DNA from: Minisyncoccota bacterium
GTDB lineage: Bacteria; Patescibacteriota; Minisyncoccia; Phycocordibacterales; DATDSR01
Direction: 5' to 3'
Assembly (NCBI GenBank): GCA_036517655.1
Contig: DATDVE010000019.1
Coordinates: forward strand, 1 to 61,078
Length of the DNA stretch: 61,078 nt
Shown: in pieces, positions 4,105 through 50,291 of the stretch
How the letters are laid out: the number at the start of each line of letters is the position of its first letter
Position numbering within the stretch: the first letter of the stretch is position 1
Translations under genes and position numbers: made by a program
Notes under the pieces: generated by a model
The model's database searches: none
Told to the model about the DNA's origin: nothing
What the model saw: only the letters and a program-made list of their open reading frames with translations

Positions 4105-4144
4105 CCCCGAAGGCTTAACCTTCGCGAAGGTTAAGCCTTCGGGG
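4105..4144. repeat. 40-bp perfect palindrome, copy 1 of a two-member family
   Basis: CCCCGAAGGCTTAACCTTCG/CGAAGGTTAAGCCTTCGGGG. It lies 18 nt beyond the stop of 4163..4690 and matches 12948..12987 at 34/40. Confidence 0.8.
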
Positions 4145-4762: not shown

Positions 4763-6340
4763 CTATCTCTTTCTGAAGTACGTGCGCAGGAGCAGTACTA
4801 CTAACGATGTAGAAAGGATTGTGTTATACAAAACCCAAAATTGAATGGTGAGGTAGTTATAGTTTAACGGGTGCAGCTTGCCACTATAGGCCATGAACAT
4901 TATTAGGGCTGTGTAAGCGAGTAGATAGATAATCGCGGAAAAAGTTGCTTGTTTGAACGCCCGCGAGGCACCGGGCTGCTTGCTATTGGTCGCCACACGC
5001 GTGGTATTACTTTTGAAAATAGCAGCAACGATAGAGTGACTGCAACTATAGAGTTGGATGAAGTATGAATAGAACGCTCCCCTGCCGAAGCGCGATATGG
5101 GGAAGGCGAGCATATAGGCGAAGCCCCAAATCATGTACGGCAAGAAGATGATCGCGCCCGCGAGGTTGATGTAGTCGTTATAGAAGAAAAGTGTCCAGAA
5201 AAGTTGGAAAGAAAATAACAAAGTGAGCGGGTGGTGGAAATAATATAAGAAGCCGGTGATGTAGGAGAGCTTAGTCTTCCAGGAGACTTGCGCCTTCCAG
5301 AACTTGCGACCCATGAAAGGGAAGAGACTGCCCGTGCACCAAGTGTGTTGTTGGTGGAAGTAGGCGTGCGGATCGTTGGGGCAAGTGCCGATCCCCAAGA
5401 TCACGGGCACGTAGCGCACTGTCCAGCCGAGGGCTTGGAGATCGAAGCCTGTGTGGGCATCCTCGCTGTGTTCTTGCAAACTCGCGCCGCCAATTTGGGC
5501 AAGCGCTTCGCGTCTATAAATAGCATTCGAGCCGCAGCAAATAGTTGCATCAAGTCTATCGCGAGCCACTTCGATTATACGATAGAAGGCTTCCTGCGAG
5601 TGGGCCGCGCCGTAAGCCAGTGGCTGCTCGCGCTTAATCTTCTTGCCCATGTCGAAGTATTGCGGCGACTGCACAATGCCTATTCTCTTGCCACTGTCAT
5701 CATTGCTAGCATGCTCCATGTAGGGTAGGAGCTCGCGGATAAAGTCAGGATGTGGCGCGCAATCTGCGTCGAGGATTACGATAAACTCGCCCGAGCTCCG
5801 CTCGAAACCGTATCTAATATTACCTGCCTTCTTCATATAGCCTCTGTCTGGTCTGGACAAGTACTCGAAACCATACTGTTTGGCCATAACTTCTTGCTCT
5901 TTGCGTGAATCTTGATCTTTAGTATCGTCGAGCACGTACACTTTTTTATTCACATAGGGCAATGCGGCCACGTGTTGCCAAGTGTTGCGCAGTACACTTA
6001 ATTCTTCGCCGCAGATTGGCAAGAACACGTCAACGGATGGCTCCCCCTTCTTTCCTCCCCCATCTTTTTGGCTGGCCCAAAAGTTTTCTACACAAGCAAA
6101 GTGTTTGGTTAGATCGAAACGCTTGTAGAAAAGATTCTGGATAAAGCTCAAGAGATAATATGCAGAGAAGAAGAGCAGAAGCGGCCCGACGAACCAGCGA
6201 AAGAATAAGTCGTAGCGTATAGCGGGGATGAAGCCATATACAACCAAGAGCCAGGAGACAATGCCGAAAGCGAAAAACACCCGCACGAGCCATGTGGGTG
6301 TTTTTCGGACGTATAAGTATTTATCTATCTGCTCGACCAA
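4763..6340 (-). CDS. Family-2 glycosyltransferase, processive cellulose-synthase-like
   Basis: Motifs VLDD, KKAGNIRYG, ILDADC, SEDAHTG and QQHTWCTG (a QxxRW variant) lie between N- and C-terminal TM bundles. The start overlaps the upstream gene's stop by 16 nt. Confidence 0.85.
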   Translation of the reverse strand: MVEQIDKYLYVRKTPTWLVRVFFAFGIVSWLLVVYGFIPAIRYDLFFRWFVGPLLLFFSAYYLLSFIQNLFYKRFDLTKHFACVENFWASQKDGGGKKGEPSVDVFLPICGEELSVLRNTWQHVAALPYVNKKVYVLDDTKDQDSRKEQEVMAKQYGFEYLSRPDRGYMKKAGNIRYGFERSSGEFIVILDADCAPHPDFIRELLPYMEHASNDDSGKRIGIVQSPQYFDMGKKIKREQPLAYGAAHSQEAFYRIIEVARDRLDATICCGSNAIYRREALAQIGGASLQEHSEDAHTGFDLQALGWTVRYVPVILGIGTCPNDPHAYFHQQHTWCTGSLFPFMGRKFWKAQVSWKTKLSYITGFLYYFHHPLTLLFSFQLFWTLFFYNDYINLAGAIIFLPYMIWGFAYMLAFPISRFGRGAFYSYFIQLYSCSHSIVAAIFKSNTTRVATNSKQPGASRAFKQATFSAIIYLLAYTALIMFMAYSGKLHPLNYNYLTIQFWVLYNTILSTSLVVLLLRTYFRKR

Positions 6341-9300
6341 GGAATGAGTTGCTCGGGAGTGAACATCGGTATATCAAGTGTGATGCCACGTAATCTGCAG
6401 TACTCAATGTTGGCCTTGCGCCTAGTTGTCATGTAGAAGTGACCAGTGGGGCCATTCAAGTTCCAAGGAGTCAACACGTCTGTGGCATTGGTGGTCTGGA
6501 AAGTGTTCACTTGCGAGATTGTGAGCGGACCGTAGAAGCCGGTCATTGGTAGATTAGCGCTCTGGTATTCGTTCAAGAAAGATTGCAGGTTGGTGATAGT
6601 CTCATTGCCGGCAGTGTTACGTCCGCGCATTGCGTACTCGCTGAAGCGAGCAAGGCATGTCTGTGTGTTGCCACTTGAGTCTGTCGAAACACCCAAAACT
6701 TGACCCGCCCCCACCGGACCCACTGCCACTTGCCCTGAGCCCGTCGAAGGGCTCCCCACGGAAATGTAAGCACCCAGAACCGATCCCGAAGGCCCGGTCT
6801 GCGGAGCCGTAGGAGAACTGCCCACAATCTGTCCCCCGCCCCCACCACCGCCAGAACTCGCCGGAGGAGTAACTGGTGCAGGAGTATTATCTGTTGGATC
6901 GCAGGCATCGCCTATGCCGTCACTATCCTTGTCAGCCTGATCTTCGTTAGGAATCAACGGACAGTTATCAGCCGTATCAGCATCGCCGTCGTTGTCATCG
7001 TCATCATCACAAGCATCCCCCATAGCATCGCCATCAGTATTTAGTTGATCAGTATTTTCAACCAGTGGGCAGTTATCGGTTGAATCCAGAATGGTGTCAG
7101 AATCCGTGTCATCACAAACGTCACCCTCTGCATCTTCGTTCATGTTGGCCTGATTGCTGTTGGCATTGATTGGGCAGTTGTCGACCCCATTTAATACCGT
7201 GTCGCCATCCTTATCTGGATCGCAAGCATCGCCTATGCCGTCATCATCGAGGTCAGCCTGGTCGAGATTTGCAATCAAGGGACAATTGTCAGTTTCGTCA
7301 GGGACAGTGTCGTCGTCAGCATCACCATCGTCACATGCATCTCCAACTCCGTTTCCATCAATATCCTCTTGTCCTGGGTTCGAGACAAGCGGACAGTTGT
7401 CTGCATCATCTAGGTCATCGTCGTTGTCGTCATCAGTATCGCATGCATTACCTATTCCGTCCCCATCAGTGTCGAGTTGATCGATATTAGCCACCAGTGG
7501 ACAATTATCTGGAGTATCAAGAACCGTATCATTGTCATCGTCACCGTCACAAGCGTCTCCCGCACCATCACCGTCGGTATCTGTCTGGTCTGCATTCACT
7601 ATCAACGGACAGTTGTCTGCTGTGTCTAAGTCGTCATCATTATCATCGTCATCATCACAGACATCACCCAAACCGTCGCCATCGGTGTCAGTTTGATCGA
7701 GATTGGCAATCAAAGGACAATTGTCAGGTGTATCAAGAACTGTATCATTGTCGTCATCCGGATCGCAGGCGTCGCCTAGTCCATCCCCGTCCGTATCGGT
7801 TTGTTCCGGGTTGGCTACAAACGGGCAGTTATCCGTTGTGTCAAGATCCCCGTCATTATCATCATCGTCGTCGCAGGTATCGCCCATTGTGTCGCCGTCG
7901 TTATTGGCTTGATCAGTATTTGCATTCACTGGGCAGTTATCAGCGTCGTCAAGAATTGTGTCGTTATCATCGTCCGTATCACACTCATCGCCAATCCCAT
8001 CACCGTCGGTGTCAGTTTGATCTGGGTTTGAATTAATGGGACAGTTGTCTGTATCATCACGCACCGTATCATCATCAGTGTCTGGGTCACTCGGATCAGT
8101 TACAGTCTCGTCATCATTCAGCAAAGTATCACCATCCTTGTCTGGATCACACACATCGCCAAGACCGTCGCCATCTATATCTTCTTGCCCAGGGTTATCA
8201 ATTGTAGGACAGTTATCTGCGTCGTTTAGGACGCCGTCATCGTCCAGATCTGTATCAGATGTAACAATGACAGTGCGCGTTACTTGAGTCGCAGCAAGCC
8301 CGTCAGAATCAGACACGTCGTAGGTAATAGTGTACGTACCTTCTGCATTAGTTACTGTGTCGCCACCAACCACAATCGAAGACGTAAGATCGCCATCTTC
8401 CTCGTCAGTAGCTGTAGCACCGGGGTCAGAGAAAGTATCGTCAGTCTCAAGTACTATCGGGTCAGCTCCGATAAGAGTTATCACCGGAGCAGCATTATCG
8501 TCATTTGTTACAGCACAAATTATATCCTGATCTAAGACCAGTGTTCCAGTGTCACAGTCATCTGCGTAGGAAACCGCGTATGTTCCTGGATTGTCCTCAA
8601 CTATTGTGTAGGAGCCCAGCCCAGCAATAGCTACTGTCTGGTCGCTCACAACATCCGAGTGAGTGCCGTCAGCGGCAGTGATGGTGAAGGTAAAACTATC
8701 CGCAGAAGATGTACCACCGTCAGTGTTATCAACTGTCTTGTTTATCGTGATTGTCGGTTTGTATGGTTCGCAGTCAGAGTCATCAAAATCAGTATCTCCG
8801 TCAGTATCGTTATCCGCGCCATCAGTACAAAGTCCACCAGTTTCAGTAGATGGAGGGTTTACAACTATTTCTACGTCAATTGTCTCGTCCCCATCTTGCA
8901 AGAACGAAGCACCACCGCCTGTCTTGAAGCTGTTGTTTTTGTTTGCTTCTGCAATAAAGGTAAACGTACCGCCCGTACTTGCAACTGTTGCCGTAAAGAT
9001 AAATGAAATAGAATCACCCGCATCGATGCCATCGCTACCAGTGTTTAGACTTGCCTCGAGAACCCCGGGCTCACCGAAATCGTCAAGGTCCCATTTCCCG
9101 GCATCTTCGGCGTCACTAAAAGATAAACTCGAAAGACCAGATGTCAGAGTAAATCCGGCAGGAAGGTTTAACCTGATTGCCTTCATTTCATCAGTCGAAC
9201 TTGCTGCGTTCGTGAATGTGACTGTAAATTCCACCTCAGAATCGGCATCTACGATCGTAGGAGAGATCGTAACACTAGCCTCACGCACCGGAGCCCCTGC

Positions 9301-9423
9301 AGCTGTGACATACTCGGTGGTCCAGAAACTTGCTCCTACGGACCAGAGGGCCATGGAAAAGACCAGGGCTAGATGGGTTATTTTTCCCACTGTGCTCTTG
9401 CCTACGTTAAATTTGTCGTACAT
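6325..9423 (-). CDS. Giant surface protein with thrombospondin type-3 repeats, Ig-like domains and a PG-binding-like C-terminal module
   Basis: 1032 aa with an N-terminal anchor/signal. It has a C-x-DG-x-DND-x-DG motif and a DUF5011-like Ig domain (PVITLIGADP..TYTITYDVSDSDG). Twelve NCPxxxNxxQxDxDGDGxGDxCD units and a Gly-rich linker precede the shared C-terminal module. Confidence 0.85.
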   Translation of the reverse strand: MYDKFNVGKSTVGKITHLALVFSMALWSVGASFWTTEYVTAAGAPVREASVTISPTIVDADSEVEFTVTFTNAASSTDEMKAIRLNLPAGFTLTSGLSSLSFSDAEDAGKWDLDDFGEPGVLEASLNTGSDGIDAGDSISFIFTATVASTGGTFTFIAEANKNNSFKTGGGASFLQDGDETIDVEIVVNPPSTETGGLCTDGADNDTDGDTDFDDSDCEPYKPTITINKTVDNTDGGTSSADSFTFTITAADGTHSDVVSDQTVAIAGLGSYTIVEDNPGTYAVSYADDCDTGTLVLDQDIICAVTNDDNAAPVITLIGADPIVLETDDTFSDPGATATDEEDGDLTSSIVVGGDTVTNAEGTYTITYDVSDSDGLAATQVTRTVIVTSDTDLDDDGVLNDADNCPTIDNPGQEDIDGDGLGDVCDPDKDGDTLLNDDETVTDPSDPDTDDDTVRDDTDNCPINSNPDQTDTDGDGIGDECDTDDDNDTILDDADNCPVNANTDQANNDGDTMGDTCDDDDDNDGDLDTTDNCPFVANPEQTDTDGDGLGDACDPDDDNDTVLDTPDNCPLIANLDQTDTDGDGLGDVCDDDDDNDDDLDTADNCPLIVNADQTDTDGDGAGDACDGDDDNDTVLDTPDNCPLVANIDQLDTDGDGIGNACDTDDDNDDDLDDADNCPLVSNPGQEDIDGNGVGDACDDGDADDDTVPDETDNCPLIANLDQADLDDDGIGDACDPDKDGDTVLNGVDNCPINANSNQANMNEDAEGDVCDDTDSDTILDSTDNCPLVENTDQLNTDGDAMGDACDDDDDNDGDADTADNCPLIPNEDQADKDSDGIGDACDPTDNTPAPVTPPASSGGGGGGGQIVGSSPTAPQTGPSGSVLGAYISVGSPSTGSGQVAVGPVGAGQVLGVSTDSSGNTQTCLARFSEYAMRGRNTAGNETITNLQSFLNEYQSANLPMTGFYGPLTISQVNTFQTTNATDVLTPWNLNGPTGHFYMTTRRKANIEYCRLRGITLDIPMFTPEQLIPWSSR
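6897..8245 (-). repeat. Tandem in-frame array of 12 TSP3-type Ca-binding repeats (~108 nt each)
   Basis: Repeated NCP(L/I)..N.DQ.DTDGDG.GDACD.DDDND units are visible in the translation. The shadow ORFs on the plus strand are artefacts of this array. Confidence 0.8.
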
Positions 9424-12947: not shown

Positions 12948-12987
12948 TCCTGAAGGCTTAACCTGCGCTAAGGTTAAGCATTCGAGG
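12948..12987. repeat. Imperfect 40-bp palindrome, copy 2 of the 4105..4144 family
   Basis: TCCTGAAGGCTTAACCTGCGCTAAGGTTAAGCATTCGAGG. It lies 19 nt beyond the stop of 13007..13261. Confidence 0.75.
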
Positions 12988-13006
12988 AATACCAAAAATG
13001 ATTCAT

Positions 13007-23563: not shown

Positions 23564-23584
23564 GTTGGATACCCGGTATCCAAC
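23564..23584. repeat. REP-like 21-nt palindrome, copy 1
   Basis: GTTGGATACC-C-GGTATCCAAC. It ends 2 nt before the RAYT stop codon. Confidence 0.85.
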
Positions 23585-23585
23585 G

Positions 23586-24233
23586 TTATTCCTCAAGTAA
23601 TAAATTTTTGAGCTCTTCATAATCAGCTCTTTTTGATTTCATATGTACGAGATTTTCTTGGGAAAAATCTTCGTACTCCTGCTTATTTTTAAACTGCGCT
23701 AGGATAATATCCTTCTTGCACATGTTGCCTGTATCGCTAATATATTCATCCCAGCTCGACCGTACAAGTTTATTTAATTCACCTGACAGATTATGAACTT
23801 TATTATTCAGATTTATGTAACTACTTAGGTGCAACAGATGCTCATTACTTTCTATATGTTTTACCTTAAACTGACCTTCGAACAGAGAGCCTGTCCTGTG
23901 ATGCTTGAGATTAAAGTAGTTCGCGTAGCCACCCAACCTTTTCATGAACTTACTTATACCATCATCTTTAAGAGGAGATAGCAGGAAGTGGAAGTGATTG
24001 GGATTTAAGCAATAACAAACTATGTCAACTAGTCTTTTTCTAGGTTTTATTCTCTCTGCCTCACTTAGTCTTGCGTGCTCAAAAATACTCCAAACAGGAT
24101 CCTCAGAGTTATAGAGATCCAAACCAAGAATAAACCTCTCGGAGTCTGCCTTATCCATAACAATTTGACGATGATCCACGCCACGATTATAAACATGGTA
24201 AAACTCACCTTGAGCAAAACTGATCTTTCTCAT
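23586..24233 (-). CDS. REP-associated tyrosine transposase (RAYT, IS200/IS605 Y1 transposase-like, COG1943)
   Basis: YHVYNRGVDHRQIV, the HUH motif CLNPNHFHFLLSP, GSLFEGQFK, and the catalytic-Tyr region SSYINLNNKVH. It is flanked by the palindrome. Confidence 0.8.
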   Translation of the reverse strand: MRKISFAQGEFYHVYNRGVDHRQIVMDKADSERFILGLDLYNSEDPVWSIFEHARLSEAERIKPRKRLVDIVCYCLNPNHFHFLLSPLKDDGISKFMKRLGGYANYFNLKHHRTGSLFEGQFKVKHIESNEHLLHLSSYINLNNKVHNLSGELNKLVRSSWDEYISDTGNMCKKDIILAQFKNKQEYEDFSQENLVHMKSKRADYEELKNLLLEE

Positions 24234-24248
24234 AAGAGGATTCTACCT

Positions 24249-24269
24249 GTTGGATACCGGGTATCCAAC
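24249..24269. repeat. REP-like palindrome, copy 2
   Basis: GTTGGATACC-G-GGTATCCAAC. It lies between the RAYT start (24233) and the NUDIX stop (24287). Confidence 0.85.
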
Positions 24270-24286
24270 AGTGGACTGCGGATATG

Positions 24287-24781
24287 TTATCTGGAATCCC
24301 AGTAAATACAGGATCCTGAATTTATCGCCTTCAGGGCGCGTTCAACCCTAGATCCAATGTTTGAACCACATAGTTTGTATACCTCTTTGTGATTCACAAA
24401 CTCATATGCTTTTATTTCATCTGCTTGTAGCTTAATTTTTCTTTTATCTGCTTCGCTAAGTACTCCGCCTAAGAACACGAAATGAAGCATCTCTTCTTTT
24501 TCGATCTGCGTATGTCGATAGTCAACACCAACCAAGCGTGGGTCCTTAAGTTCTAGTCCAAGTTCTTCTTTAGTCTCACGAATAGCGGCCTCGAGCGGTG
24601 ACTCATTTTCTTCAATTCCCCCGCCTGGTACTTCCCAGTTTTCCTTATAGGTAGTTTCGAGTACGAGGACGTTTCCTAGCTCGTCAGGAAAAACAACAGT
24701 CGAAGACATCAACTTCCTGTTTCTTTTTGCCAAATACTGAGCTCGTTCATCTAGGCTAAATAGCTTCATGTATTTATCCAT
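24287..24781 (-). CDS. NUDIX hydrolase
   Basis: Nudix box GGGIEENESPLEAAIRETKEELGLE. Confidence 0.85.
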   Translation of the reverse strand: MDKYMKLFSLDERAQYLAKRNRKLMSSTVVFPDELGNVLVLETTYKENWEVPGGGIEENESPLEAAIRETKEELGLELKDPRLVGVDYRHTQIEKEEMLHFVFLGGVLSEADKRKIKLQADEIKAYEFVNHKEVYKLCGSNIGSRVERALKAINSGSCIYWDSR

Positions 24782-24802
24782 GTTGGATACCGGGTATCCA
24801 AC
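24782..24802. repeat. REP-like palindrome, copy 3
   Basis: Identical to copy 2. It occupies almost the whole 24-nt gap between the NUDIX ATG (24781) and the trmD stop (24806). Confidence 0.85.
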
Positions 24803-26245: not shown

Positions 26246-28294
26246 ATGCAAAGGAATTCAGGCAACAAGCGGCGAGAGTTTGGCGGCAAGAGCAAAAATC
26301 ACGGCGATCGCCGTAATTTTAAACATGACAAACTTCACAAGCGCCAAGTACCAAACAAGAACCAAAACGTGCAAACTTCCAAGCGAGAAATAGAGGGCGT
26401 GATCAAACTTGCGGGACGCAAGGGTGGTTTCGTCTTGCCCGAGGGGTACACCGACGAGGTCAGAATTGATCCGGCATTCTTGGGCACTGCTCTGCATAAC
26501 GACGAGGTCAGGGTACTGCTTCATAAACCCCACTTCGCCAAGGCTTCGCGGGGCGGTGAGCAGGAGCTCACCGGTGAAGTTATCAAGATTCTCACTCGAG
26601 CCAAAAGTCGCTTCGTTGGCACGATTGCAAATGGCAAATTTGTGCCCGATGATCGCAGATTCTATCTGGAAGTAGAGCTTGCCAAAGAGGGGGGGGCTGA
26701 GGCGGCTGACCAGAAGGTCTTAGTTGAGATCACCGATTGGCATAGCTTCCCCATTCGTGGGAGAGTGGTAGAAATATTGGGCAAGCAGGGCGAGCATGAG
26801 ACAGAGATGCTCTCGATCCTGGCAGCCACTGGCATCGTCTATGACTTCCCCACTCTAGTCGAAGCAGAAGCGAAAGAGGTGGCGGCCCGTCTTCGCCAAG
26901 GCTTCGACGAGGTGAGACGTGATATGAGAAGCACGCTGACCTTCACCATCGATCCCGCAAGTGCTAAAGATTTTGACGATGCGCTCTCGTTTAAAGAATT
27001 TGGCAGTGGGAAATACGAGATAGGGGTACACATTGCTGACGTCTCGCACTTCGTCAGGCCTGGAACAAAGCTAGATGATGAAGCGAGGCGCCGGGCAAAT
27101 AGCGTATACATGGTGGATCGCACGGTACCAATGCTACCGGAAGTTTTGTCTGCTGATATTTGCTCTCTGGTACCCAATCAAGACAGACTCACATATTCCG
27201 CGATCTTCGTTATAGATAAGACTGGCAAGGTAGAGAGTGAGTGGTTTGGCCGCACTATTATCCACTCGCAGAGGAGATTTACTTACGAAGAGGCAGCCAA
27301 GATTCTGAAGGATAAATCAGGTCAATATGCCGAAGAACTCATGATACTCAATGAGATCGCCCAGAATCTTCATAAAGAGCGGGTACGCAAGGGTTCAGTG
27401 ATCTTTGAGAAAGACGAGATCAAGGTCGAGCTAGATGCACAAAGCAAACCGGTGCGCATATATGTCAAAGAGCGATTAGCAACCCACAAGCTAATCGAGG
27501 AGTTCATGCTCCTCGCCAACAAGCATGTTGCCCGTTACCTGTATCTGGGAGTTGGGAAATTAGGTGGGGCGGCAGTGTACCGAATTCATGATGTACCGGA
27601 CAAGGATCGCATAGTACTGGTTAAATCATTTCTCAAATCTTTGGGATACAAGTTTGAGGGAGACCCGAAAAAGTTTGGCGCCCGTGAGATCAACGAACTT
27701 TTCGCCCAGATCAAGGGCGAGGATATCGAGATGCTGGTGCAGACGGCAGTCTTGCGCTCGATGGCCAAGGCCATTTACTCCACTCGCAATATTGGCCACT
27801 TCGGACTTGGCTTCGAGTTCTACACCCACTTCACCTCGCCGATCCGCAGATACCCAGATGTGCTGGTCCACAGACTCTTGACAAAATATCTTTCGGGTAA
27901 GCCCATAGAGAAGAGCGAGGTCATAGAGTTCGAGCGAATCGCACGCTACTCAAGTGAGCGCGAGCGCGAGGCTGAAGCGGCAGAGCGCGAGAGCGTCAAG
28001 TACAAACAAGTTGAGTACATGCTCTCCCTTAAGGAGAAAGACCCGACAAGACTATACGACGGCACAATTGTGGGGGTCACAGAGTGGGGCATCTTCGTCG
28101 AAGAGCAAAGTGCGAAGTCAGAAGGCATGCTACGCCTTTCTAGTTTGGGGGATGATTATTACGAATTCGATGAGAAAAAATTTGCCATCATAGGTAAGCG
28201 TACCAAAAAAGTTTACAGATTAGGAGATAAAATAAAAGTAAAATTACTAGAAGTAGACGTCCCCCGCCATCAAATCACCTGGGAACTGGTATAA
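26246..28294 (+). CDS. rnr: Ribonuclease R (RNB family 3'-5' exoribonuclease)
   Basis: RNB motifs DPASAKDFDDALS and HFGLGFEFYTHFTSPIRRYPD, with a C-terminal S1 domain. Confidence 0.9.
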   Translation: MQRNSGNKRREFGGKSKNHGDRRNFKHDKLHKRQVPNKNQNVQTSKREIEGVIKLAGRKGGFVLPEGYTDEVRIDPAFLGTALHNDEVRVLLHKPHFAKASRGGEQELTGEVIKILTRAKSRFVGTIANGKFVPDDRRFYLEVELAKEGGAEAADQKVLVEITDWHSFPIRGRVVEILGKQGEHETEMLSILAATGIVYDFPTLVEAEAKEVAARLRQGFDEVRRDMRSTLTFTIDPASAKDFDDALSFKEFGSGKYEIGVHIADVSHFVRPGTKLDDEARRRANSVYMVDRTVPMLPEVLSADICSLVPNQDRLTYSAIFVIDKTGKVESEWFGRTIIHSQRRFTYEEAAKILKDKSGQYAEELMILNEIAQNLHKERVRKGSVIFEKDEIKVELDAQSKPVRIYVKERLATHKLIEEFMLLANKHVARYLYLGVGKLGGAAVYRIHDVPDKDRIVLVKSFLKSLGYKFEGDPKKFGAREINELFAQIKGEDIEMLVQTAVLRSMAKAIYSTRNIGHFGLGFEFYTHFTSPIRRYPDVLVHRLLTKYLSGKPIEKSEVIEFERIARYSSEREREAEAAERESVKYKQVEYMLSLKEKDPTRLYDGTIVGVTEWGIFVEEQSAKSEGMLRLSSLGDDYYEFDEKKFAIIGKRTKKVYRLGDKIKVKLLEVDVPRHQITWELV

Positions 28295-30343: not shown

Positions 30344-30352
30344 ATTTATATG

Positions 30353-30417
30353 GTACCAACTCACCCGGACTTTGTCTCGCCCTCTCTTATCTATAAGAGA
30401 GGGTTGGGGTGAGTTAT
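30353..30417 (-). promoter_or_regulatory. 65-bp structured repeat, copy 1 (promoter/operator module upstream of smc)
   Basis: About 94% identical to 34113..34176. It contains the palindrome CCCTCTCTTAT-ct-ATAAGAGAGGG (30380-30403) nested in AACTCACCC/GGGTGAGTT arms. The minus strand has GAGACA, 17 nt, TACCAT, 6 nt, GTG. Confidence 0.6.
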
Positions 30418-33482: not shown

Positions 33483-34103
33483 CTACCGAAAAGTTAATCT
33501 GGTCAAGTAGCTCGTCCTGTGGATCGGCGAGAGGCCGTGTTTCCCAATAGCGGCATAGTGCGCACCCGTGCCATAACCCTTATGCTTCGCAAAATCCCAA
33601 GCTGGATACCGGGTACCCAACTTAGTCATTTTTTTATCTCTGTGCACTTTGGCCAACACACTCGCCAGGCCAATTATCGGCACAAGTGAATCGCCCCTGG
33701 TGATAGTTTTTTGATTTTTAAATACTTTGGGAGCACGCAACCCTCCGTCAAGCAAAACCTCACTTTTGGTTACCTGGTAACCAAGTTGGACAGTTAGGCG
33801 GGTGAGTGAACGTGAGATGGCGAGGTTTACTGCCCAGACAATTCCCTTTTTATCTATTATTGTGTGTGCGACTGATGAAATTTTGTAATCTAGCTTGCCT
33901 ATTTTTTTTAACTCTTTCAGTCTTGCAACTATTTTTTCGCGCTGCCCCGGTGAAAGCTTTTTTGAATCCAGTGATAAGTTTCGCGAAGCAAAATTTCTAC
34001 AAGTTTCTATCAAATTTCGATCTCTTATAGCTAGTGCGCAGACGGTTACCGGCCCAGCTATGGGCCCACGGCCAACCTCGTCTATGCCGATTACCCAGTT
34101 CAT
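33483..34103 (-). CDS. rnhB: Ribonuclease HII
   Basis: MNWVIGIDEVGRGPIAGPVTVCA and ..FAKHKGYGTGAHY. ATG 34103 is preferred because the MSWYYDC extension lies inside the repeat module. Confidence 0.9.
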   Translation of the reverse strand: MNWVIGIDEVGRGPIAGPVTVCALAIRDRNLIETCRNFASRNLSLDSKKLSPGQREKIVARLKELKKIGKLDYKISSVAHTIIDKKGIVWAVNLAISRSLTRLTVQLGYQVTKSEVLLDGGLRAPKVFKNQKTITRGDSLVPIIGLASVLAKVHRDKKMTKLGTRYPAWDFAKHKGYGTGAHYAAIGKHGLSPIHRTSYLTRLTFR

Positions 34104-34112
34104 GCAATCATA

Positions 34113-34176
34113 GTACCAACTCACCCGGACCTTGTCTCGCCCTCTCTTATTTATAAGAGAGGGGTGGGTGAGTTAT
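34113..34176. promoter_or_regulatory. 65-bp structured repeat, copy 2 (divergent rnhB/dnaE control region)
   Basis: Same module as 30353..30417. The minus strand has GAGACA, 17 nt, TACTAT, 6 nt, ATG (rnhB). The plus-strand dnaE -10 box TATAAT (34174-34179) begins in the module's last 3 nt and lies 6 nt from the dnaE ATG. Confidence 0.6.
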
Positions 34177-37893: not shown

Positions 37894-39726
37894 ATGAGGC
37901 TACCTCACATCCCCAATCCGCTTAAGATTCTCTCGCGCGAGCATAAGCCTAAATCTCCTGAAGAGTTGGCTCCTATGCGCCACACACTTGCGCACTTACT
38001 TGCCGCTGCCGTGCTTGAACTGTGGCCGGATGCTAAGCGCACTATTGGCCCTGCTATTGATAACGGCTTCTATTACGATTTTGAGTTCCCCACTTCGCTA
38101 GAGCTTCGCGGGGCAAGCACTAAGCCAATTACAGATTCCGATTTGCCAAAGATCGAGAGCAAGATGCGCGAGCTCTTGCCTAGCTGGATTAAATTTGAAA
38201 AGCATGAGTTAACTGCCGAGGAAGCTAAAAAAGAATACATTGGAAATGAATACAAACATGAACTGATAGATGAATTCACAAAAGAAGGTCAAAAAGTAAC
38301 TTTCTATAAATCTGGCAACTATTCTGATTTGTGTAAGGGCGGCCACGTCGAGAATCCGAGTAAGGAGATCAAGCCAGATTCATTCAAACTCTCGCACATA
38401 GCCGGAGCCTATTGGCGAGGTGACGAGAAAAACAAAATGCTCACCCGTATTTACGGCTTGGCATTTGAGAGTAAGGAAATGTTGGAGAAGTATATCGCCC
38501 AGCAGGAAGAAGCCAAAAAGCGCGATCACAAAGTTCTTGGCCCGGCTCTTGACCTATTTATGTTCCACGAGACTTCTCCTGGAATGCCGTACTGGCTACC
38601 CAAAGGCATGATAGTTATAAACAAACTTGTCGATTTTTGGCGGAAAGAACACCGAGAGCGCGGATATCTAGAAATTGCTTCACCTCTAATTAATAAAAAA
38701 GAGCTCTGGATCACTTCTGGTCACTGGGACCACTACAAAGATGACATGTTCATCTCAAACATGGGGGAAGGTGAAATTTACGGCATTAAACCAATGAATT
38801 GCCCTAACGCAATGATTGTATTCGGGTCACAAACAAGAAGCTATCGGGATTTGCCATATCGCCTATCAGACACAGACATACTCCATCGTTACGAACGCTC
38901 AGGCACACTCAATGGACTTTTACGGGCACGTTCATTTAGACAAGACGATTCACACAACTTTATCGCTGAAGACATGATAGAGGCAGAATGCGCGCGAATC
39001 CTTGACCTCACGGAGCGTTTCTATGGTATTTTCGGCCTGCAATATCACCTCAAATTAAGCACGCGGCCAGACCAATTCATGGGAGATATTGAAACATGGA
39101 ATCGCGCAGAATCTGCATTGCGTAAAGTTCTAAACGAAAAAGTTGGATCTGGTAAATACGGAATTAAAGAAAAAGATGGCGCATTCTATGGTCCCAAAAT
39201 AGACATACATATGACTGATGCGTTAGGAAGGGAGTGGCAGATGGGCACAATTCAACTTGACTTCCAACAGCCTCGCCGCTTCGGACTTGAATATGCAGAC
39301 AAAGATGGTTCTCGTAAAACTCCAGTAGTAATACACAGAGTTCTATATGGTTCGATCGAAAGATTTATCGGAATCCTGATAGAACACACAGCAGGCAACT
39401 TCCCTTTCTGGCTCAGCCCAGTGCAGGCCAAAGTCTTGCCTATTACTGACACGCAGAAGAAGTATGCCGAGAAAGTATACGACGAGCTGATCAGCGCTGG
39501 CATAAGAGCCGAGATAGATACTCGCACAGAGAGTCTGGGTAAAAAAATCCGTGACGCCAAACTCGAGAAAATCCCCTACTTAATAGTGATAGGCGAAAAA
39601 GAACAAAAAGAAAGCAAAGTTACGCTGGAAGCTAGAGGGCTGGAGGCTGGAAGCAAGAAAGAAAAAGGTGTGTCTATGAAAGTCTCAGAACTAGTAGAAA
39701 AGTTAACAAAAGAAAACCTCTCATAG
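37894..39726 (+). CDS. thrS: Threonyl-tRNA synthetase lacking the N-terminal TGS domain
   Basis: MRHTLAHLLAAAVLELWP..GPAIDNGFYYDFEF (second additional domain), class II core (KPMNCP, RARSFRQDDSH) and anticodon-binding domain. The sequence begins ~45 aa later than E. coli ThrRS. Confidence 0.93.
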   Translation: MRLPHIPNPLKILSREHKPKSPEELAPMRHTLAHLLAAAVLELWPDAKRTIGPAIDNGFYYDFEFPTSLELRGASTKPITDSDLPKIESKMRELLPSWIKFEKHELTAEEAKKEYIGNEYKHELIDEFTKEGQKVTFYKSGNYSDLCKGGHVENPSKEIKPDSFKLSHIAGAYWRGDEKNKMLTRIYGLAFESKEMLEKYIAQQEEAKKRDHKVLGPALDLFMFHETSPGMPYWLPKGMIVINKLVDFWRKEHRERGYLEIASPLINKKELWITSGHWDHYKDDMFISNMGEGEIYGIKPMNCPNAMIVFGSQTRSYRDLPYRLSDTDILHRYERSGTLNGLLRARSFRQDDSHNFIAEDMIEAECARILDLTERFYGIFGLQYHLKLSTRPDQFMGDIETWNRAESALRKVLNEKVGSGKYGIKEKDGAFYGPKIDIHMTDALGREWQMGTIQLDFQQPRRFGLEYADKDGSRKTPVVIHRVLYGSIERFIGILIEHTAGNFPFWLSPVQAKVLPITDTQKKYAEKVYDELISAGIRAEIDTRTESLGKKIRDAKLEKIPYLIVIGEKEQKESKVTLEARGLEAGSKKEKGVSMKVSELVEKLTKENLS

Positions 39727-45440: not shown

Positions 45441-45469
45441 ACCCTATCTCATTTGCCGACCTATGTCTA
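45441..45469 (-). promoter_or_regulatory. Weak sigma70-like promoter for the island H operon
   Basis: Minus strand reads TAGACA (45464-45469), 17 nt, TAGGGT (45441-45446). Confidence 0.3.
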
Positions 45470-45473
45470 GCTC

Positions 45474-45510
45474 TGTCCGAAAAGACAAACGATCGTGGGA
45501 TAAATCGGAC
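45474..45510. repeat. 37-bp inverted repeat, left arm (flanks the PaaX-like gene)
   Basis: TGTCCGAAAAGACAAACGATCGTGGGATAAATCGGAC. It is the reverse complement of 46113..46149 at 35/37 (first 25 nt perfect) and lies 18 nt past the stop codon. Confidence 0.85.
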
Positions 45511-45527
45511 AACAAAATAACAACTAT

Positions 45528-46112
45528 TCAGCCTGGGAGCTCGAAGCTTTCTCTTAAGTCTTGATCAAACTCTATTTCGTCTACTACAAAGTACCTTACC
45601 TCGCGCGACAGATGATATTTCCGTCGAATTAACTCTATCGCCTCTCGACATTCGTATGGGTATGCCCAAAGACTCTTTTGTATATTTGCGAATCCTAGCG
45701 AGACAAGGACAGAACGTAGCTCATCCCTAGCATCTCGTCTCTTCTCGGGAATATCGAAACTGACCATGTGCCACTTACCATCCCAACGCCCCGGTTTCTC
45801 AATTTTAAGTTCGCCAATACTTATTTTCTCTGCCAAATCTTCTCCCTTTTGAGTGAGATCGTAACCCCTCCTGTTATTCTTCAGAATTGATTTTAGCAAA
45901 CCCTTCCGAACCATATTTTCTAGGCGCTGTTTGAATTCGAAGTGTTTCTTTCGTAGTCTTCTGGGATTATCTTTAGTCCCATAGCCGCCTGTGTACAAAT
46001 CAAATGGCAACAGGATCCCTGTTGCCTCTATTTTAGTAAGGATTTCGCGTTCGAGCTTCCCCAGCTTCTGGTTCTTTCTATATTTCTCAATATCATCTCG
46101 CATTTTACCCAT
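45528..46112 (-). CDS. PaaX-like domain protein (winged helix plus Cas2-like fold)
   Basis: WDGKWHMVSFDIPEKRRDARDELRSVLVSLGFANIQKSLWAYPY matches the PaaX-family core. It has an N-terminal wHTH-like region. Confidence 0.6.
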   Translation of the reverse strand: MGKMRDDIEKYRKNQKLGKLEREILTKIEATGILLPFDLYTGGYGTKDNPRRLRKKHFEFKQRLENMVRKGLLKSILKNNRRGYDLTQKGEDLAEKISIGELKIEKPGRWDGKWHMVSFDIPEKRRDARDELRSVLVSLGFANIQKSLWAYPYECREAIELIRRKYHLSREVRYFVVDEIEFDQDLRESFELPG

Positions 46113-46149
46113 GTCCGAATTATGCCACGATCGTTTGTCTTTTCGGACA
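46113..46149. repeat. 37-bp inverted repeat, right arm
   Basis: GTCCGAATTATGCCACGATCGTTTGTCTTTTCGGACA. It starts at the nucleotide next to the ATG of 45528..46112. Confidence 0.85.
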
Positions 46150-46179
46150 AAGTTATTAACACCCTTAAAGTAAGGGGGC

Positions 46180-48413: not shown

Positions 48414-50291
48414 TCAAATCTCTATGACGTCTATACCCCCCGTTTCCGAATTCTTATTAGGCTCACCCTGACATGAGGAGTCTCGCGGGATATCTATGAT
48501 GTTATCCTTATCCGAATCCCAGCCTTTCCAGTCTACGAATCCATCATTGTCGTTATCAACGCCGTCATTACAGGCGGGGCACAATCCAGGTCCGTCGGCT
48601 GGACAATTACCCTGTATGACAGGATTAGTCTCGTTACTGTCCGCGCGATTGAAGCAACCAAGATCTGCCGGATAATCCGTCTTACCGTCGTTGTCGTTGT
48701 CTACACCATCATTACACGCTGGGCAAACTCCCGGGCCATCGGCGGGGCAGTTGGCTCCGGTTTCGGATTCGTTGTCGTCGCTTAACGAGCTACAGTCCTG
48801 ATCGTTGGGGGAATCGGTAAAGCCGTCGCCGTCGTTATCTACTCCATCGTTACATTGCGCACATATACCGGGGCCGGCGGCTGGACACCCGAGTGTCTGA
48901 TCACGCTCATCGTCATCGTCTGCGCTGTCGCACCCTGGATCATCCAGGTCAAGTTTACCGTCGTTGTCGTTGTCTAATCCATCAGAACACTGCGGCAAAA
49001 TAACAGGCGCATCGCCAAAATGGGCAGTGGCGGCTCTTGAAGTACTCATCTCGAGAGTACACACAGGATTAGTGCCCGTACAGGAACCTGTCCATTTTTG
49101 GAACACGGTATTGTTGCCGGGCAGTGCCGAAAGTTTAACTGACTCGTCATTTAGATAAGTCTCCGTGCAATCGGTACCGCAATTAATGCCGGGGCTAGCC
49201 GAGATAACACTTCCCTTATTGGGCTGACGCTCGAAAACTAAGCTAACTGTAAGCAATGCGTTGGCCTCGTTATTATCTTGAGGGTTATCAGAACAACCAC
49301 TATCGTTGAGCCAGTCGATCTTGCCGTCCCCGTCGTTATCGAGGCAGTCGTCGCAGGCAGGACCCGCAGCGGCAAGTTCACTTGTGCCATTTAGGCTCAA
49401 GCACTCCGGATCCTCGGGATAATCAAATTTATTATCTAAATCGTTATCGATATCATCATTGCAAGCGGGACATACACCTGGGCCATCCGTGGGACAGTTG
49501 GCTGTGCGGAAAGTGGCCTTAATCTCCTTATTAGTCGTGAGATTGATATTATTGCAGAAGCGCGAAGTTATGGTACCGCATTCATTGGCATTTGCCCCCG
49601 ACCAATTACTGAAGACATAGCCAGGACCCGCCGTGGCCACAAGATCGATAGTGGCATTCTGATCATACGGGAAAGAACAAGAACTTAGGGTGCACGTGTC
49701 ACTCTCGACATTAACTTTGGAGCCTCCACCACCGAATACCACTCCAGTTGTAATATTAACTTGCGAAACAGAGAACACGCCAGGCCCCTTCGAAGGATTC
49801 CAGCTCATCCAACCGAGAACTTGGTCAGACCACGAGTAGCCTGTGAATTTAGTACCGTCAAAACTTACTCCGTAATTTGCGTCAGACAAGTGCACCCAGC
49901 CTTCCCAACCTTGCGCACTACTGCCAGATAAAACTTTGGCCCAACCCGTAACTGTGTCATCAACTAACTTGGGGGCACATGGTGAAGTCGGGCAACCGGA
50001 TACATCACCTGCGTTAAAACTAATCCAGCCTAGGCCAGAGTTCCAGGCATAGCCAGACAGCGCACCGGTGTCCCTGTCTAAATTAACACCGTAATTTGCA
50101 CTAGAGCAGGAATTATTGTTTGAGCAATTGAAACTCACCCAGCCAACGTTTGCACTCCAAGCGTAACCCTCGACCCGGCTGGTCTCGGCATGAACAGGAA
50201 GTGCAAAGTTGAAAATGAAAAAAGCAAAAGTACAGGTCAAAATCCAAAATTTTGATTTTTTAACTGTAATTTTGATTTTTGAACTCTGCAT
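48414..50291 (-). CDS. Secreted Cys-rich repeat protein (GYAWS/GWISF repeats, InlB-B-like repeats, six C-x-DG-x-DND-x-DG metal-binding-type modules)
   Basis: Signal/TM at the N-terminus. GYAWSANVGWVSFN, GYAWNSGLGWISFN and GYSWSDQVLGWMSWN repeats are present. There are two G.V...P....C...C...Y......L.A.P..G..F..W.G.C modules and repeated CPADGPGVCPACNDGVDNDNDG..D units. Confidence 0.8.
   Translation of the reverse strand: MQSSKIKITVKKSKFWILTCTFAFFIFNFALPVHAETSRVEGYAWSANVGWVSFNCSNNNSCSSANYGVNLDRDTGALSGYAWNSGLGWISFNAGDVSGCPTSPCAPKLVDDTVTGWAKVLSGSSAQGWEGWVHLSDANYGVSFDGTKFTGYSWSDQVLGWMSWNPSKGPGVFSVSQVNITTGVVFGGGGSKVNVESDTCTLSSCSFPYDQNATIDLVATAGPGYVFSNWSGANANECGTITSRFCNNINLTTNKEIKATFRTANCPTDGPGVCPACNDDIDNDLDNKFDYPEDPECLSLNGTSELAAAGPACDDCLDNDGDGKIDWLNDSGCSDNPQDNNEANALLTVSLVFERQPNKGSVISASPGINCGTDCTETYLNDESVKLSALPGNNTVFQKWTGSCTGTNPVCTLEMSTSRAATAHFGDAPVILPQCSDGLDNDNDGKLDLDDPGCDSADDDDERDQTLGCPAAGPGICAQCNDGVDNDGDGFTDSPNDQDCSSLSDDNESETGANCPADGPGVCPACNDGVDNDNDGKTDYPADLGCFNRADSNETNPVIQGNCPADGPGLCPACNDGVDNDNDGFVDWKGWDSDKDNIIDIPRDSSCQGEPNKNSETGGIDVIEI

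Follow-up and report, generated by a model that had tools for sequence, protein, structure and literature searches.

What kind of element occupies the space between trmD and rpoB in a Minisyncoccota bacterium, where a gene for a transposase-like protein stands amid perfect palindromes, and are these palindromes read by that protein? The stretch analysed, positions 1 to 61,078 of contig DATDVE010000019.1 (hereafter the window, meaning the whole 61-kb stretch), carries at this place a 215-amino acid (aa) open reading frame (ORF; 23586–24233, minus strand). Based on the letters alone, a preliminary description had assigned the ORF to the REP-associated tyrosine transposases (RAYTs) and the palindromes to the repetitive extragenic palindromic (REP) type. 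REP/RAYT biology is known almost entirely from Proteobacteria, and its benefit to the host is debated. The answer that we hold to be the probable one is a REPtron-like module, in which a vertically inherited, transposase-derived Y1 HUH endonuclease gene is accompanied by palindromes that its enzyme would recognise.

The ORF encodes a predicted Y1 HUH endonuclease

Both motifs pointed out in the preliminary description, NPNHFHFLL and SSYINLNN, are present in the 215-aa ORF. Its assignment to the Y1 transposases was borne out by the Pfam profile PF01797 (Y1_Tnp; 27.1 bits against a cut-off of 23, E = 4.8e-6, residues 66–141), by the conservation of the catalytic residues and by the fold. In a 28-member alignment at ∼50% identity, H80 and H82 (NPNH[FY]H), Y139 and N143 (Y[VI]NLN) are invariant, and H147, the SSW.EY tail motif and Q180-F181 are invariant or nearly so. 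The family motifs in these 28 members read LF(Q/E)G and Y(V/I)NLN, the latter followed by N, D, F, Y, H or W and never by P. Using Foldseek, the AlphaFold2 model (pLDDT 87.8, pTM 0.84) was matched best in the PDB by 4ER8, E. coli TnpA_REP with a REP hairpin (E = 1e-5, target-normalised TM 0.63), followed by the IS608 and ISDra2 TnpA structures (2A6O, 2VJV and 2XM3); the 15 best PDB matches, 9 of them at E ≤ 0.001, were all Y1 transposases. The C-terminal tail of ∼70 aa is conserved and helical in the model, and Pfam at E ≤ 0.01 returned Y1_Tnp only, with no Bac_DnaA_C or helix-turn-helix (HTH) tail domain.

Database searching recovered 1511 homologues, nearly all of 210–225 aa and ∼50% identical over their full length, hosted by Paceibacterota, Giovannonibacteria, Wolfebacteria, Vogelbacteria and other Patescibacteria. 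They are named ‘transposase’ in the databases, with one ‘REP element-mobilizing transposase RayT’. A profile search of 1.84 billion cluster representatives (50% identity) yielded 1155 proteins at E ≤ 1e-30, and the plasmid and phage collections returned distant transposases only (26–38% identity), with no close relatives. On every feature tested, the 215-aa protein is thus best described as a Y1 HUH endonuclease of the Y1_Tnp superfamily, predicted to keep the HUH and catalytic-tyrosine chemistry together with the TnpA_REP/IS200 fold; within that superfamily we place the gene in a RAYT-like, class-2 TnpA_Y1 clade of Patescibacteria.

Three perfect hairpins accompany the Y1 and NUDIX genes

All genes of the segment lie on the minus strand, in the order rpsP, KH-domain gene, trmD, NUDIX, 215-aa ORF, rpoB and rpoC. 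Searching the window for GTTGGATACCSGGTATCCAAC, i.e. GTTGGATACC[S]GGTATCCAAC, gave exactly three perfect matches, and none of 100 dinucleotide-preserving shuffles yielded any match. Copy 1 (GTTGGATACCCGGTATCCAAC; 23564–23584, centre C) folds as single-stranded DNA (ssDNA) at −7.3 kcal/mol and stands 1 nucleotide (nt) downstream of the Y1 stop codon (23586–23588). The 21-nt core of copy 2 (24249–24269, centre G), between the NUDIX stop and the Y1 start, is part of a 25-nt perfect palindrome, CTGTTGGATACCGGGTATCCAACAG (CTGTTGG...CCAACAG; 24247–24271), with an ssDNA fold of −10.3 kcal/mol and a z-score of −5.2. Copy 3 (24782–24802, centre G) occupies the gap between trmD and NUDIX. All three copies form ssDNA stems of 9–11 base pairs closed by 3-nt loops, their folding energies ranging from −7.3 to −10.3 kcal/mol.

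On the gene strand, the trmD stop is followed by 3 nt, hairpin 3 and, with no intervening nucleotide, the first NUDIX ATG, the start proposed by the gene caller (24769) lying 12 nt past the hairpin. NUDIX is followed by 17 nt, hairpin 2, 13 nt and the ATG of the 215-aa ORF. The NUDIX hydrolase gene (24287–24781, minus strand; 164 aa from the first ATG, 160 aa from the gene-caller start) matches the Pfam NUDIX profile at 3.5e-18 and has copies 2 and 3 on its two sides. The preliminary description was therefore accurate as to the three perfect palindromes, their positions and the bracketing of NUDIX; its distances were right in placing copies 1 and 2 close to the stop and the start, and each was off by one, copy 1 lying 1 nt rather than 2 nt from the stop and the core of copy 2 15 nt rather than 16 nt upstream of the ATG.

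An Rfam scan of the whole window returned tRNA only, with no known RNA family over the hairpins. We also considered an intrinsic terminator. The terminator scan flags the palindromes on the plus strand only, and this candidate was rejected since no T-run follows them on the gene strand.

Cognate hairpins recur across the family

A scan of species-representative genomes gave >599 matched stretches (586 confirmed by tblastn), from which 79 loci were kept; the source species of the window lies outside this set, in which the best match to the window protein is 54% identical. Among 81 genes with both flanks readable, 51 have a family-type hairpin on both sides, with the same arms in 50 of these 51. 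Median distances are 17 nt from the end of the upstream hairpin to the start codon and 4 nt from the stop codon to the start of the downstream TT[GA]G foot. Palindromes with a TT[GA]G foot numbered 194 in the 79 loci, as against 0.85 in composition-preserving shuffles.

The family consensus reads (C)ACTTGG-N5-N-N5-CCAAGT(G), with T, T and G of the foot invariant and positions 7–11 variable. In 61 aligned hairpins, 94% of the cells pair and 150 cells carry double changes, compared to 43 ± 9 in shuffles. These hairpins had been preselected to contain no more than one mismatch, so that the information lies in how varied the pairs are rather than in the percentage paired; positions 7 and 8 show all four pair types. 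Base pairing is kept as well in the TTAG/CTAA variants of the foot, via 10 double changes. Protein identity correlates with upper-stem identity (Mantel r = 0.26), a value that none of 2000 permutations reached. Several genomes encode two or three divergent Y1 paralogues, and within one genome these differ in their hairpin (L048/L052/L080; L041/L053/L085); the hairpins of the L027 and L035 paralogues differ by a single compensatory pair. Taken together, these comparisons strongly suggest that the palindromes are the cognate hairpins of the Y1 protein, in a REPtron-like arrangement that recurs family-wide.

The module appears old and evolves in concert

Six genomes hold the Y1 gene at the trmD–rpoB locus, with Y1 identities to the window protein of 51–87%. 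The layout rpsP–KH–trmD–[hairpin]–NUDIX–[hairpin]–Y1–[hairpin]–rpoB recurs in several other genomes, and L009 departs from it in having no NUDIX. At L102 (Y1 87%, NUDIX 76% identical), the three hairpins are of the window type. Window-type hairpins are also present at L107 and L103 (Y1 77%), with one mismatch in two of the three copies, and NUDIX is cut there to its C-terminal 89 residues. The three copies at L111 (Y1 58%, NUDIX 73%) read TTCGGTTAC-TAG-GTAACCGAA and the three at L114 (Y1 60%, NUDIX 61%) read TCCGGTTACC-S-GGTAACCGGA, while the two copies at L009 (Y1 51%, rpoB 81%) read ACTTGGTTACC-W-GGTAACCAAGT. A hairpin at the trmD–NUDIX junction is shared by L102, L107, L111 and L114, each with the sequence of its own genome. 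The copies of a module are thus identical or nearly so per genome, and several paired positions differ between genomes. Such identity within and divergence between genomes points to homogenisation or to selection by a common reader, and does not fit independent decay. By this comparison of orthologous loci, the module would be old, vertically inherited and evolving in concert.

The conservation of the layout across genomes with 61–76% identical NUDIX genes indicates that NUDIX has long been enclosed; as one lineage has a truncated NUDIX and another none at all, the gene can be taken as dispensable. A recent capture of NUDIX, as the preliminary description had considered possible, is ruled out by the layout shared with L102, L111 and L114; the arrangement is old and conserved in genomes whose NUDIX genes have diverged.

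Regarding mobility, all 11 gene pairs at ≥77% identity, each from different species, share their flanking genes on both sides. Paralogues of one genome at 73–75% identity occupy unrelated contexts, and no within-genome Y1 pair exceeds ∼75% identity among the 79 loci. The unrelated contexts of such paralogues suggest that the hairpin–gene–hairpin unit has been duplicated to new sites, rarely.

The preliminary description had further read copy 1 as inverted relative to the others, as in REP doublets. Family-wide, the copy upstream of the gene has the same orientation as the downstream copy in 25 loci and the opposite one in 23, and the order of central bases on the gene strand varies among orthologues (C, C, G in the window; C, G, C in L102; G, C, C in L114). 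These figures leave the flip without a doublet meaning. The central base is apparently labile in evolution, which would fit repeated rewriting of the palindrome from either strand.

The suggestion that the module stands in the place of rplS found no support either. No rplS was located in the window, and tblastn with approximate E. coli rplS and rimM queries, a weak negative, found no match in the window or the loci. Since L009, devoid of NUDIX, likewise has no rplS after trmD, nothing shows that the module displaced it.

The upstream hairpin overlaps a predicted promoter

Within the upstream hairpin of the window we noted a promoter-like site, TTGGAT–17 nt–TAGAAT (24240–24268, minus strand), whose −10 box ends 6 nt before the Y1 ATG, predicting a leaderless mRNA; a simple promoter scan called the same site as TGGATA–16–TAGAAT (9/12 matches). 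Of 63 upstream hairpins in the family, 42 show TAnnnT exactly 17 nt past the TTGGnn contributed by their 5′ foot, 43 supply the TG of an extended −10 box through their 3′ foot, and 34 have 6–7 nt between the end of the −10 box and the ATG, a distance that again predicts leaderless mRNAs. The upstream hairpin would thus form exactly the −35-to-spacer part of a leaderless-mRNA promoter, so that binding there probably autoregulates the gene; autoregulation of the Y1 gene, via hairpin or duplex binding, is a reasonable inference from this overlap. Promoter function alone is insufficient to explain the conservation of the foot, since the TTAG/CTAA variants maintain its pairing and the downstream and solitary copies have the same foot.

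A perfect sigma-70 consensus promoter (TTGACA–16–TATAAT; 23518–23491, minus strand) is present between hairpin 1 and rpoB, and rpoB is therefore apparently transcribed independently of the module.

Dispersed copies are few

Scanning metagenomes of the Joint Genome Institute (JGI) with the 19-mer core returned 24 stretches, the window's own contig not among them. About half carry other terminal bases, and several lie on unrelated high-GC or marine contigs; matches of this latter kind are probably due to chance. The exact 21-mer is present in 12 of the 24, and 10 of these 12 come from sample sets holding the organism of the window or its relatives. Copies beyond the three module sites, which the preliminary description had left to be sought, thus exist as exact 21-mers on other contigs of the same and related sample sets; their abundance is low, unlike that of classical REP families.

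Solitary copies reside in a group-1 glycosyltransferase gene (L090), in uvrC (exact in L106; a variant with other terminal bases at a different site in L093), in a Dus gene (L094, one terminal base differing), in a cysteine desulfurase gene (L095 and, identically, L100; same length as in homologues), as a variant in a GT2 gene (L096), in recG (L098, identical in L101; ∼4 aa longer than PDB homologues in an alignment by eye) and in an intergenic gap (L099). Intragenic copies are read in all three frames, as VGYRVSN, WIPGIQ and LDTRYPT. The 79 other loci contain 29 family-type palindromes >60 nt from a Y1 gene, four of them intragenic; 15 of the 29 are cognate copies, at distances of 62 nt to 3 kb from the Y1 gene, and several of these bracket a neighbouring gene, like copy 3. 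Off-gene copies are in general mostly intergenic, on the two sides of nearby genes, and sometimes lie within coding sequence.

Two further palindromes lie inside rnhB of the window (33483–34124, minus strand). The 19/21 match already reported at 33601–33621, which encodes KLGTRYPAW, is indeed present; it is no clean insertion, as its alignment with E. coli RNase HII and Patescibacteria homologues is gap-free, many members of the RNase HII clade having L[GDA]TRYP.W at this position. It may represent either an old conversion event or a coincidental match that amino-acid constraint reinforced. The second, a perfect 19-nt palindrome missed previously (TTGGTTACCTGGTAACCAA; 33766–33784, encoding LGYQVTK), occupies a variable loop, from which 6 aa are missing in E. 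coli RNase HII and 5 aa in many Patescibacteria homologues. Its core, GGTTACC, is that of the L009, L111 and L114 hairpins, and it may thus preserve, in fossil form, a hairpin type that the window lineage had before GGATACC. We also examined clean 7-codon insertion as an account of the intragenic copies and set it aside as not demonstrated, in view of the unchanged length at the rnhB 33601 and cysteine desulfurase sites and of the ∼4 additional aa in recG.

Three family-type hairpins that differ from one another (ACTTGGAAACT.., ACTTGGTGGCG.. and ATTTGGACATC..) form a tandem cluster within 120 nt at L074 (3910–4027), 2.4 kb away from a Y1 gene; the cluster is reminiscent of an array of bacterial interspersed mosaic elements (BIMEs).

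Other repeats in the window

A 27-nt repeat, CCCCACTTCGCCAAGGCTTCGCGGGGC, occurs at 26528–26554 and 38088–38114 and is read in frame as PHFAKASRG inside the RNase R gene. Two exact copies are found in L106 (9717 and 1071), one of them inside uvrC and likewise read as PHFAKASRG; based on this shared repeat, L106 probably derives from the same or a very close genome as the window. In variants elsewhere, both internal CTNCGC half-repeats change together (CTTCGC, CTACGC, CTCCGC), and the repeat resembles a further short in-frame element of the mobile or convertible kind.

A 59-nt repeat (93% identical; 30350–30408 and 34110–34168) contains the palindrome CCCTCTCTTAT[C/T]TATAAGAGAGGG and is situated at the 5′ ends of smc and of rnhB/dnaE, so that both ORFs appear to start MSWY/VSWY; a similar palindrome, CCCTCCCCTTATCATAAGGGGAGGG, is present at L114 (2128–2152). 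Furthermore, a 40-nt perfect palindrome (CCCCGAAGGCTTAACCTTCG/CGAAGGTTAAGCCTTCGGGG) occupies 4105–4144, with a degenerate second copy (86%) at 12949–12990. At the site of this second copy, where the window has no Y1 gene, L102 has a second, divergent Y1 paralogue with its own hairpin, CAAGGTTGAACCTTG, beside a sigma-factor gene.

Inverted repeats of 44 nt (91% complementary; 45468–45511 and 46112–46155) flank a 194-aa ORF (45528–46112, minus strand) with a PaaX central Cas2-like domain (Pfam 2.7e-24), which may constitute another small bracketed module. Tandem 108-nt (36-codon) repeats at 60–73% identity extend from 6888 to 8256 within a 1032-aa ORF (6325–9423, minus strand), and related Asp/Gly-rich repeats are found in the ORF at 48414–50291.

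Discussion

In the REPtron-like module that we propose, the enzyme would bind the hairpin when it is extruded on ssDNA, for instance on the lagging-strand template, and would cut and rejoin at the hairpin foot via a 5′-phosphotyrosine intermediate. Such activity could keep the copies homogeneous while randomising the orientation of the central base, occasionally seed new solitary copies and, rarely, duplicate the whole hairpin–gene–hairpin unit to a new locus. Binding at the upstream hairpin would probably autoregulate the Y1 gene, and NUDIX would be a gene long enclosed in the module in the window lineage.

Several observations weigh against this proposal. The protein falls below the NCBIfam equivalog model NF047646 (REP_Tyr_transpos; 23.8 bits, cut-off 80), and a PDB sequence-profile search with the family alignment returned no Y1 protein and only spurious RNase A matches; Y1 structures being matched by fold and not by sequence profile, the relationship is remote. 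The foot reads (C)ACTTGG or ACTTAG, and GTTGG in the window lineage, with no GTAG or GTGG, unlike canonical REPs, which are defined by a 5′ GT[AG]G guide tetranucleotide (PMC6006769). Off-gene copies are few (∼5–8 solitary sites over apparently several related genomes), and dispersal is modest in the 61-kb window as well (one extra cognate copy and one degenerate copy), these counts resting on the window, the sampled loci and metagenome contigs. At several intragenic copies, the gene does not differ from its homologues by a clean 21 nt in length. The protein–hairpin correlation can come from shared descent alone as well as from co-adaptation, and perfect symmetry is equally what a dimeric protein binding double-stranded DNA would select. 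Finally, we infer binding and cleavage by the Y1 protein from homology.

The same features can be arranged into other accounts. An autonomous, very sluggish IS200-type insertion sequence (IS), with the flanking hairpins as its ends and the other copies as end remnants or miniature derivatives, is unlikely, yet it deserves to be taken seriously. It would account for a hairpin–gene–hairpin unit that recurs as an entity at many unrelated loci, for two to three paralogues per genome, each with its own ends, and for same-genome paralogues at 73–75% identity in different contexts, as if the unit had moved or been duplicated whole; the fold also matches that of IS608 and ISDra2 TnpA. However, no near-identical copies occur in the sampled genomes, where the within-genome maximum is ∼75% compared to 99% for IS200 subclass 1.1 (PMC6006769), the trmD–rpoB position is kept at Y1 identities of 51–87%, and 11 of 11 pairs at ≥77% identity are syntenic. 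Moreover, the motif is Y-x-x-L-N rather than Y-x-x-x-Q, the protein has 215 aa with a conserved tail rather than a ∼150-aa core, and close relatives are absent among plasmids and phages. The supposed ends are perfect, symmetric, identical and of random relative orientation, whereas IS200/IS605 elements have distinct left and right ends. We regard as improbable a host-maintained, non-selfish ssDNA-processing system with programmable hairpin specificity and several orthogonal enzyme–hairpin pairs per genome, in which the enzyme rewrites DNA to its cognate palindrome. Rewriting would explain why copies are perfect within a genome and different between genomes, the free flip of the central base, and the conversion-like copies in uvrC, recG, rnhB and the cysteine desulfurase gene, whose length changes little if at all; if so, the promoter-embedded copy would make the system self-regulating.

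It is quite improbable, in our judgement, that the palindromes are mainly regulatory or structural, either as dimer operators, with the Y1 protein perhaps a repressor only, or as insulating, terminating or stabilising hairpins, and that their spread is not Y1-catalysed. The upstream copy does coincide with a −35/17-nt/−10 promoter in 42 of 63 loci (extended −10 TG in 43), copies stand directly past the trmD, NUDIX and Y1 stops, as do REPs that act on mRNA (PMC3733652), and perfect dyad symmetry suits dimer binding. Pure DNA binding would require neither the catalytic His-x-His nor the Tyr, yet both are invariant at ∼50% identity, and the TTAG/CTAA variants weaken the −35 box yet pair (10 double changes). 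No T-tract follows the hairpins on the gene strand, and exact copies lie inside coding regions in all three frames. In addition, three sites identical per genome and diverged between genomes call for a shared reader or for homogenisation. A local duplication or chance resemblance, functionally unconnected to the ORF, has in its favour that the perfect copies of the window all lie in one 1.2-kb stretch; with 0/100 shuffles matching, exact copies on other contigs and a recurrence of the architecture in at least five other genomes, each with its own hairpin sequence, and in most of 81 loci, this account is effectively refuted and its probability close to nil.

A RAYT-like family is widespread in streamlined Patescibacteria, with a gene kept for long at one locus. 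Such retention is difficult to explain for a purely selfish element and is relevant to the question of the ‘domesticated transposase’. The many enzyme–hairpin pairs with a common foot and differing upper stems would form a natural specificity series for hairpin reading by Y1 HUH enzymes, which could serve to build orthogonal HUH tags, and the hairpin embedded in a leaderless-mRNA promoter points to autoregulation, a testable circuit. As regards annotation, such genes are labelled ‘transposase’ and their hairpins, including the in-frame intragenic ones, are left unmarked.

Comparison with known systems

With the TnpA proteins of IS200/IS605 elements (IS608, ISDra2), the family shares the HUH/Y1 fold, the hairpin-bracketed gene and the appearance of the whole unit at new loci. 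Unlike these elements, it has no high-identity multicopy members, no Q in the Y motif, no tnpB, long-term synteny, 215 aa with a conserved tail instead of a ∼150-aa core, and identical, symmetric ends. Judged by the absence of near-identical copies, the Y motif, the protein length and the long-term synteny, the module does not appear to be an IS200-type insertion sequence.

The in-frame palindromes inside functional genes recall intragenic REPs and Rickettsia palindromic elements (RPE) (PMC3733652), and the host genes, here partly of replication and repair (uvrC at two sites, recG, rnhB), parallel those of intragenic REPs (PMC3733652, PMC6006769). Unlike these elements, the present copies are only 19–25 nt long (6–8 codons), several of them without net length change.

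E. coli TnpA_REP and its REPtrons, reportedly the subject of Nunvar 2010, Ton-Hoang 2012 and Messing 2012 (PDB 4ER8), resemble the present system in having a Y1 HUH gene with its own hairpin repeat on both sides, a separate repeat per paralogue, low gene copy number, vertical inheritance and repeat copies elsewhere, occasionally inside genes. REPtrons, the specificity of RAYTs for their own REP and the enrichment of intragenic REPs in repair genes are documented (PMC6006769, PMC3733652), and RAYTs behave as vertically inherited housekeeping genes (PMC5581495). Unlike REPs, the repeats here are short perfect palindromes (‘double foot’) with 1–3-nt centres and no bulges, and their dispersal is very low compared to tens to hundreds of copies. 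Unlike canonical RAYTs (subclasses 2.2, 2.4, 2.5, 2.7 and 2.8), the protein has FQ/FE in place of WQ/WE and Y-x-x-L-N without P, the class-2 RAYT motifs being WQ/WE after HUH and Y-x-x-x-N-P (motif table, PMC6006769). The ∼70-aa conserved C-terminal tail, the upstream repeat in the gene's promoter and the Patescibacteria host set it apart as well. In view of the RAYT model, WQ, NP, GT[AG]G and the low abundance, this is apparently not a canonical RAYT/REP system. Of the label ‘RAYT-type’ in the preliminary description, the REPtron-like gene flanked by cognate hairpins stands; the NCBIfam RAYT cut-off, GT[AG]G, WQ and the P of NP do not support it.

By motif set (by eye against Table 1 of PMC6006769), the protein is nearest to subclass 2.1, where Y[IV]HLNP takes the place of the Y[IV]NLN without P seen here. 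With subclass 2.1, Bertels group 1 and the TIRYT proteins of TIRtrons (TIR, terminal inverted repeat), it appears to share NH[YF]H, FQ, Y[IV]xLN and the SS tail motif, besides a length >200 aa. As in Bertels group 1, the flanking repeats appear only modestly repeated in the genome. Flanking 16-mers occur ∼12 times in that group and 57 and 140 times in groups 2 and 3 (PMC5581495), and dispersal here appears closer to the former. Some TIRs of TIRtrons are likewise self-complementary (PMC3733652, PMC6006769, PMC5581495). Unlike TIRYTs, the family shows no HTH tail domain (Bac_DnaA_C, HTH_23, HTH_28) by Pfam, and its repeats are devoid of GGGGWSAS. Quentin et al. (2018) reported no REP-like structures adjoining subclass 2.1 genes (PMC6006769), whereas hairpins are the rule beside the genes studied here. 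In the searchable literature on RAYT/REP in Patescibacteria, also known as the Candidate Phyla Radiation (CPR), and on in-frame Parcubacteria palindromes, we found one incidental mention, the association of this family with hairpins being undescribed there. Overall, these comparisons indicate that the trmD–rpoB module, which shows no sign of recent insertion, is a Patescibacteria version of REP/RAYT that has been little described.

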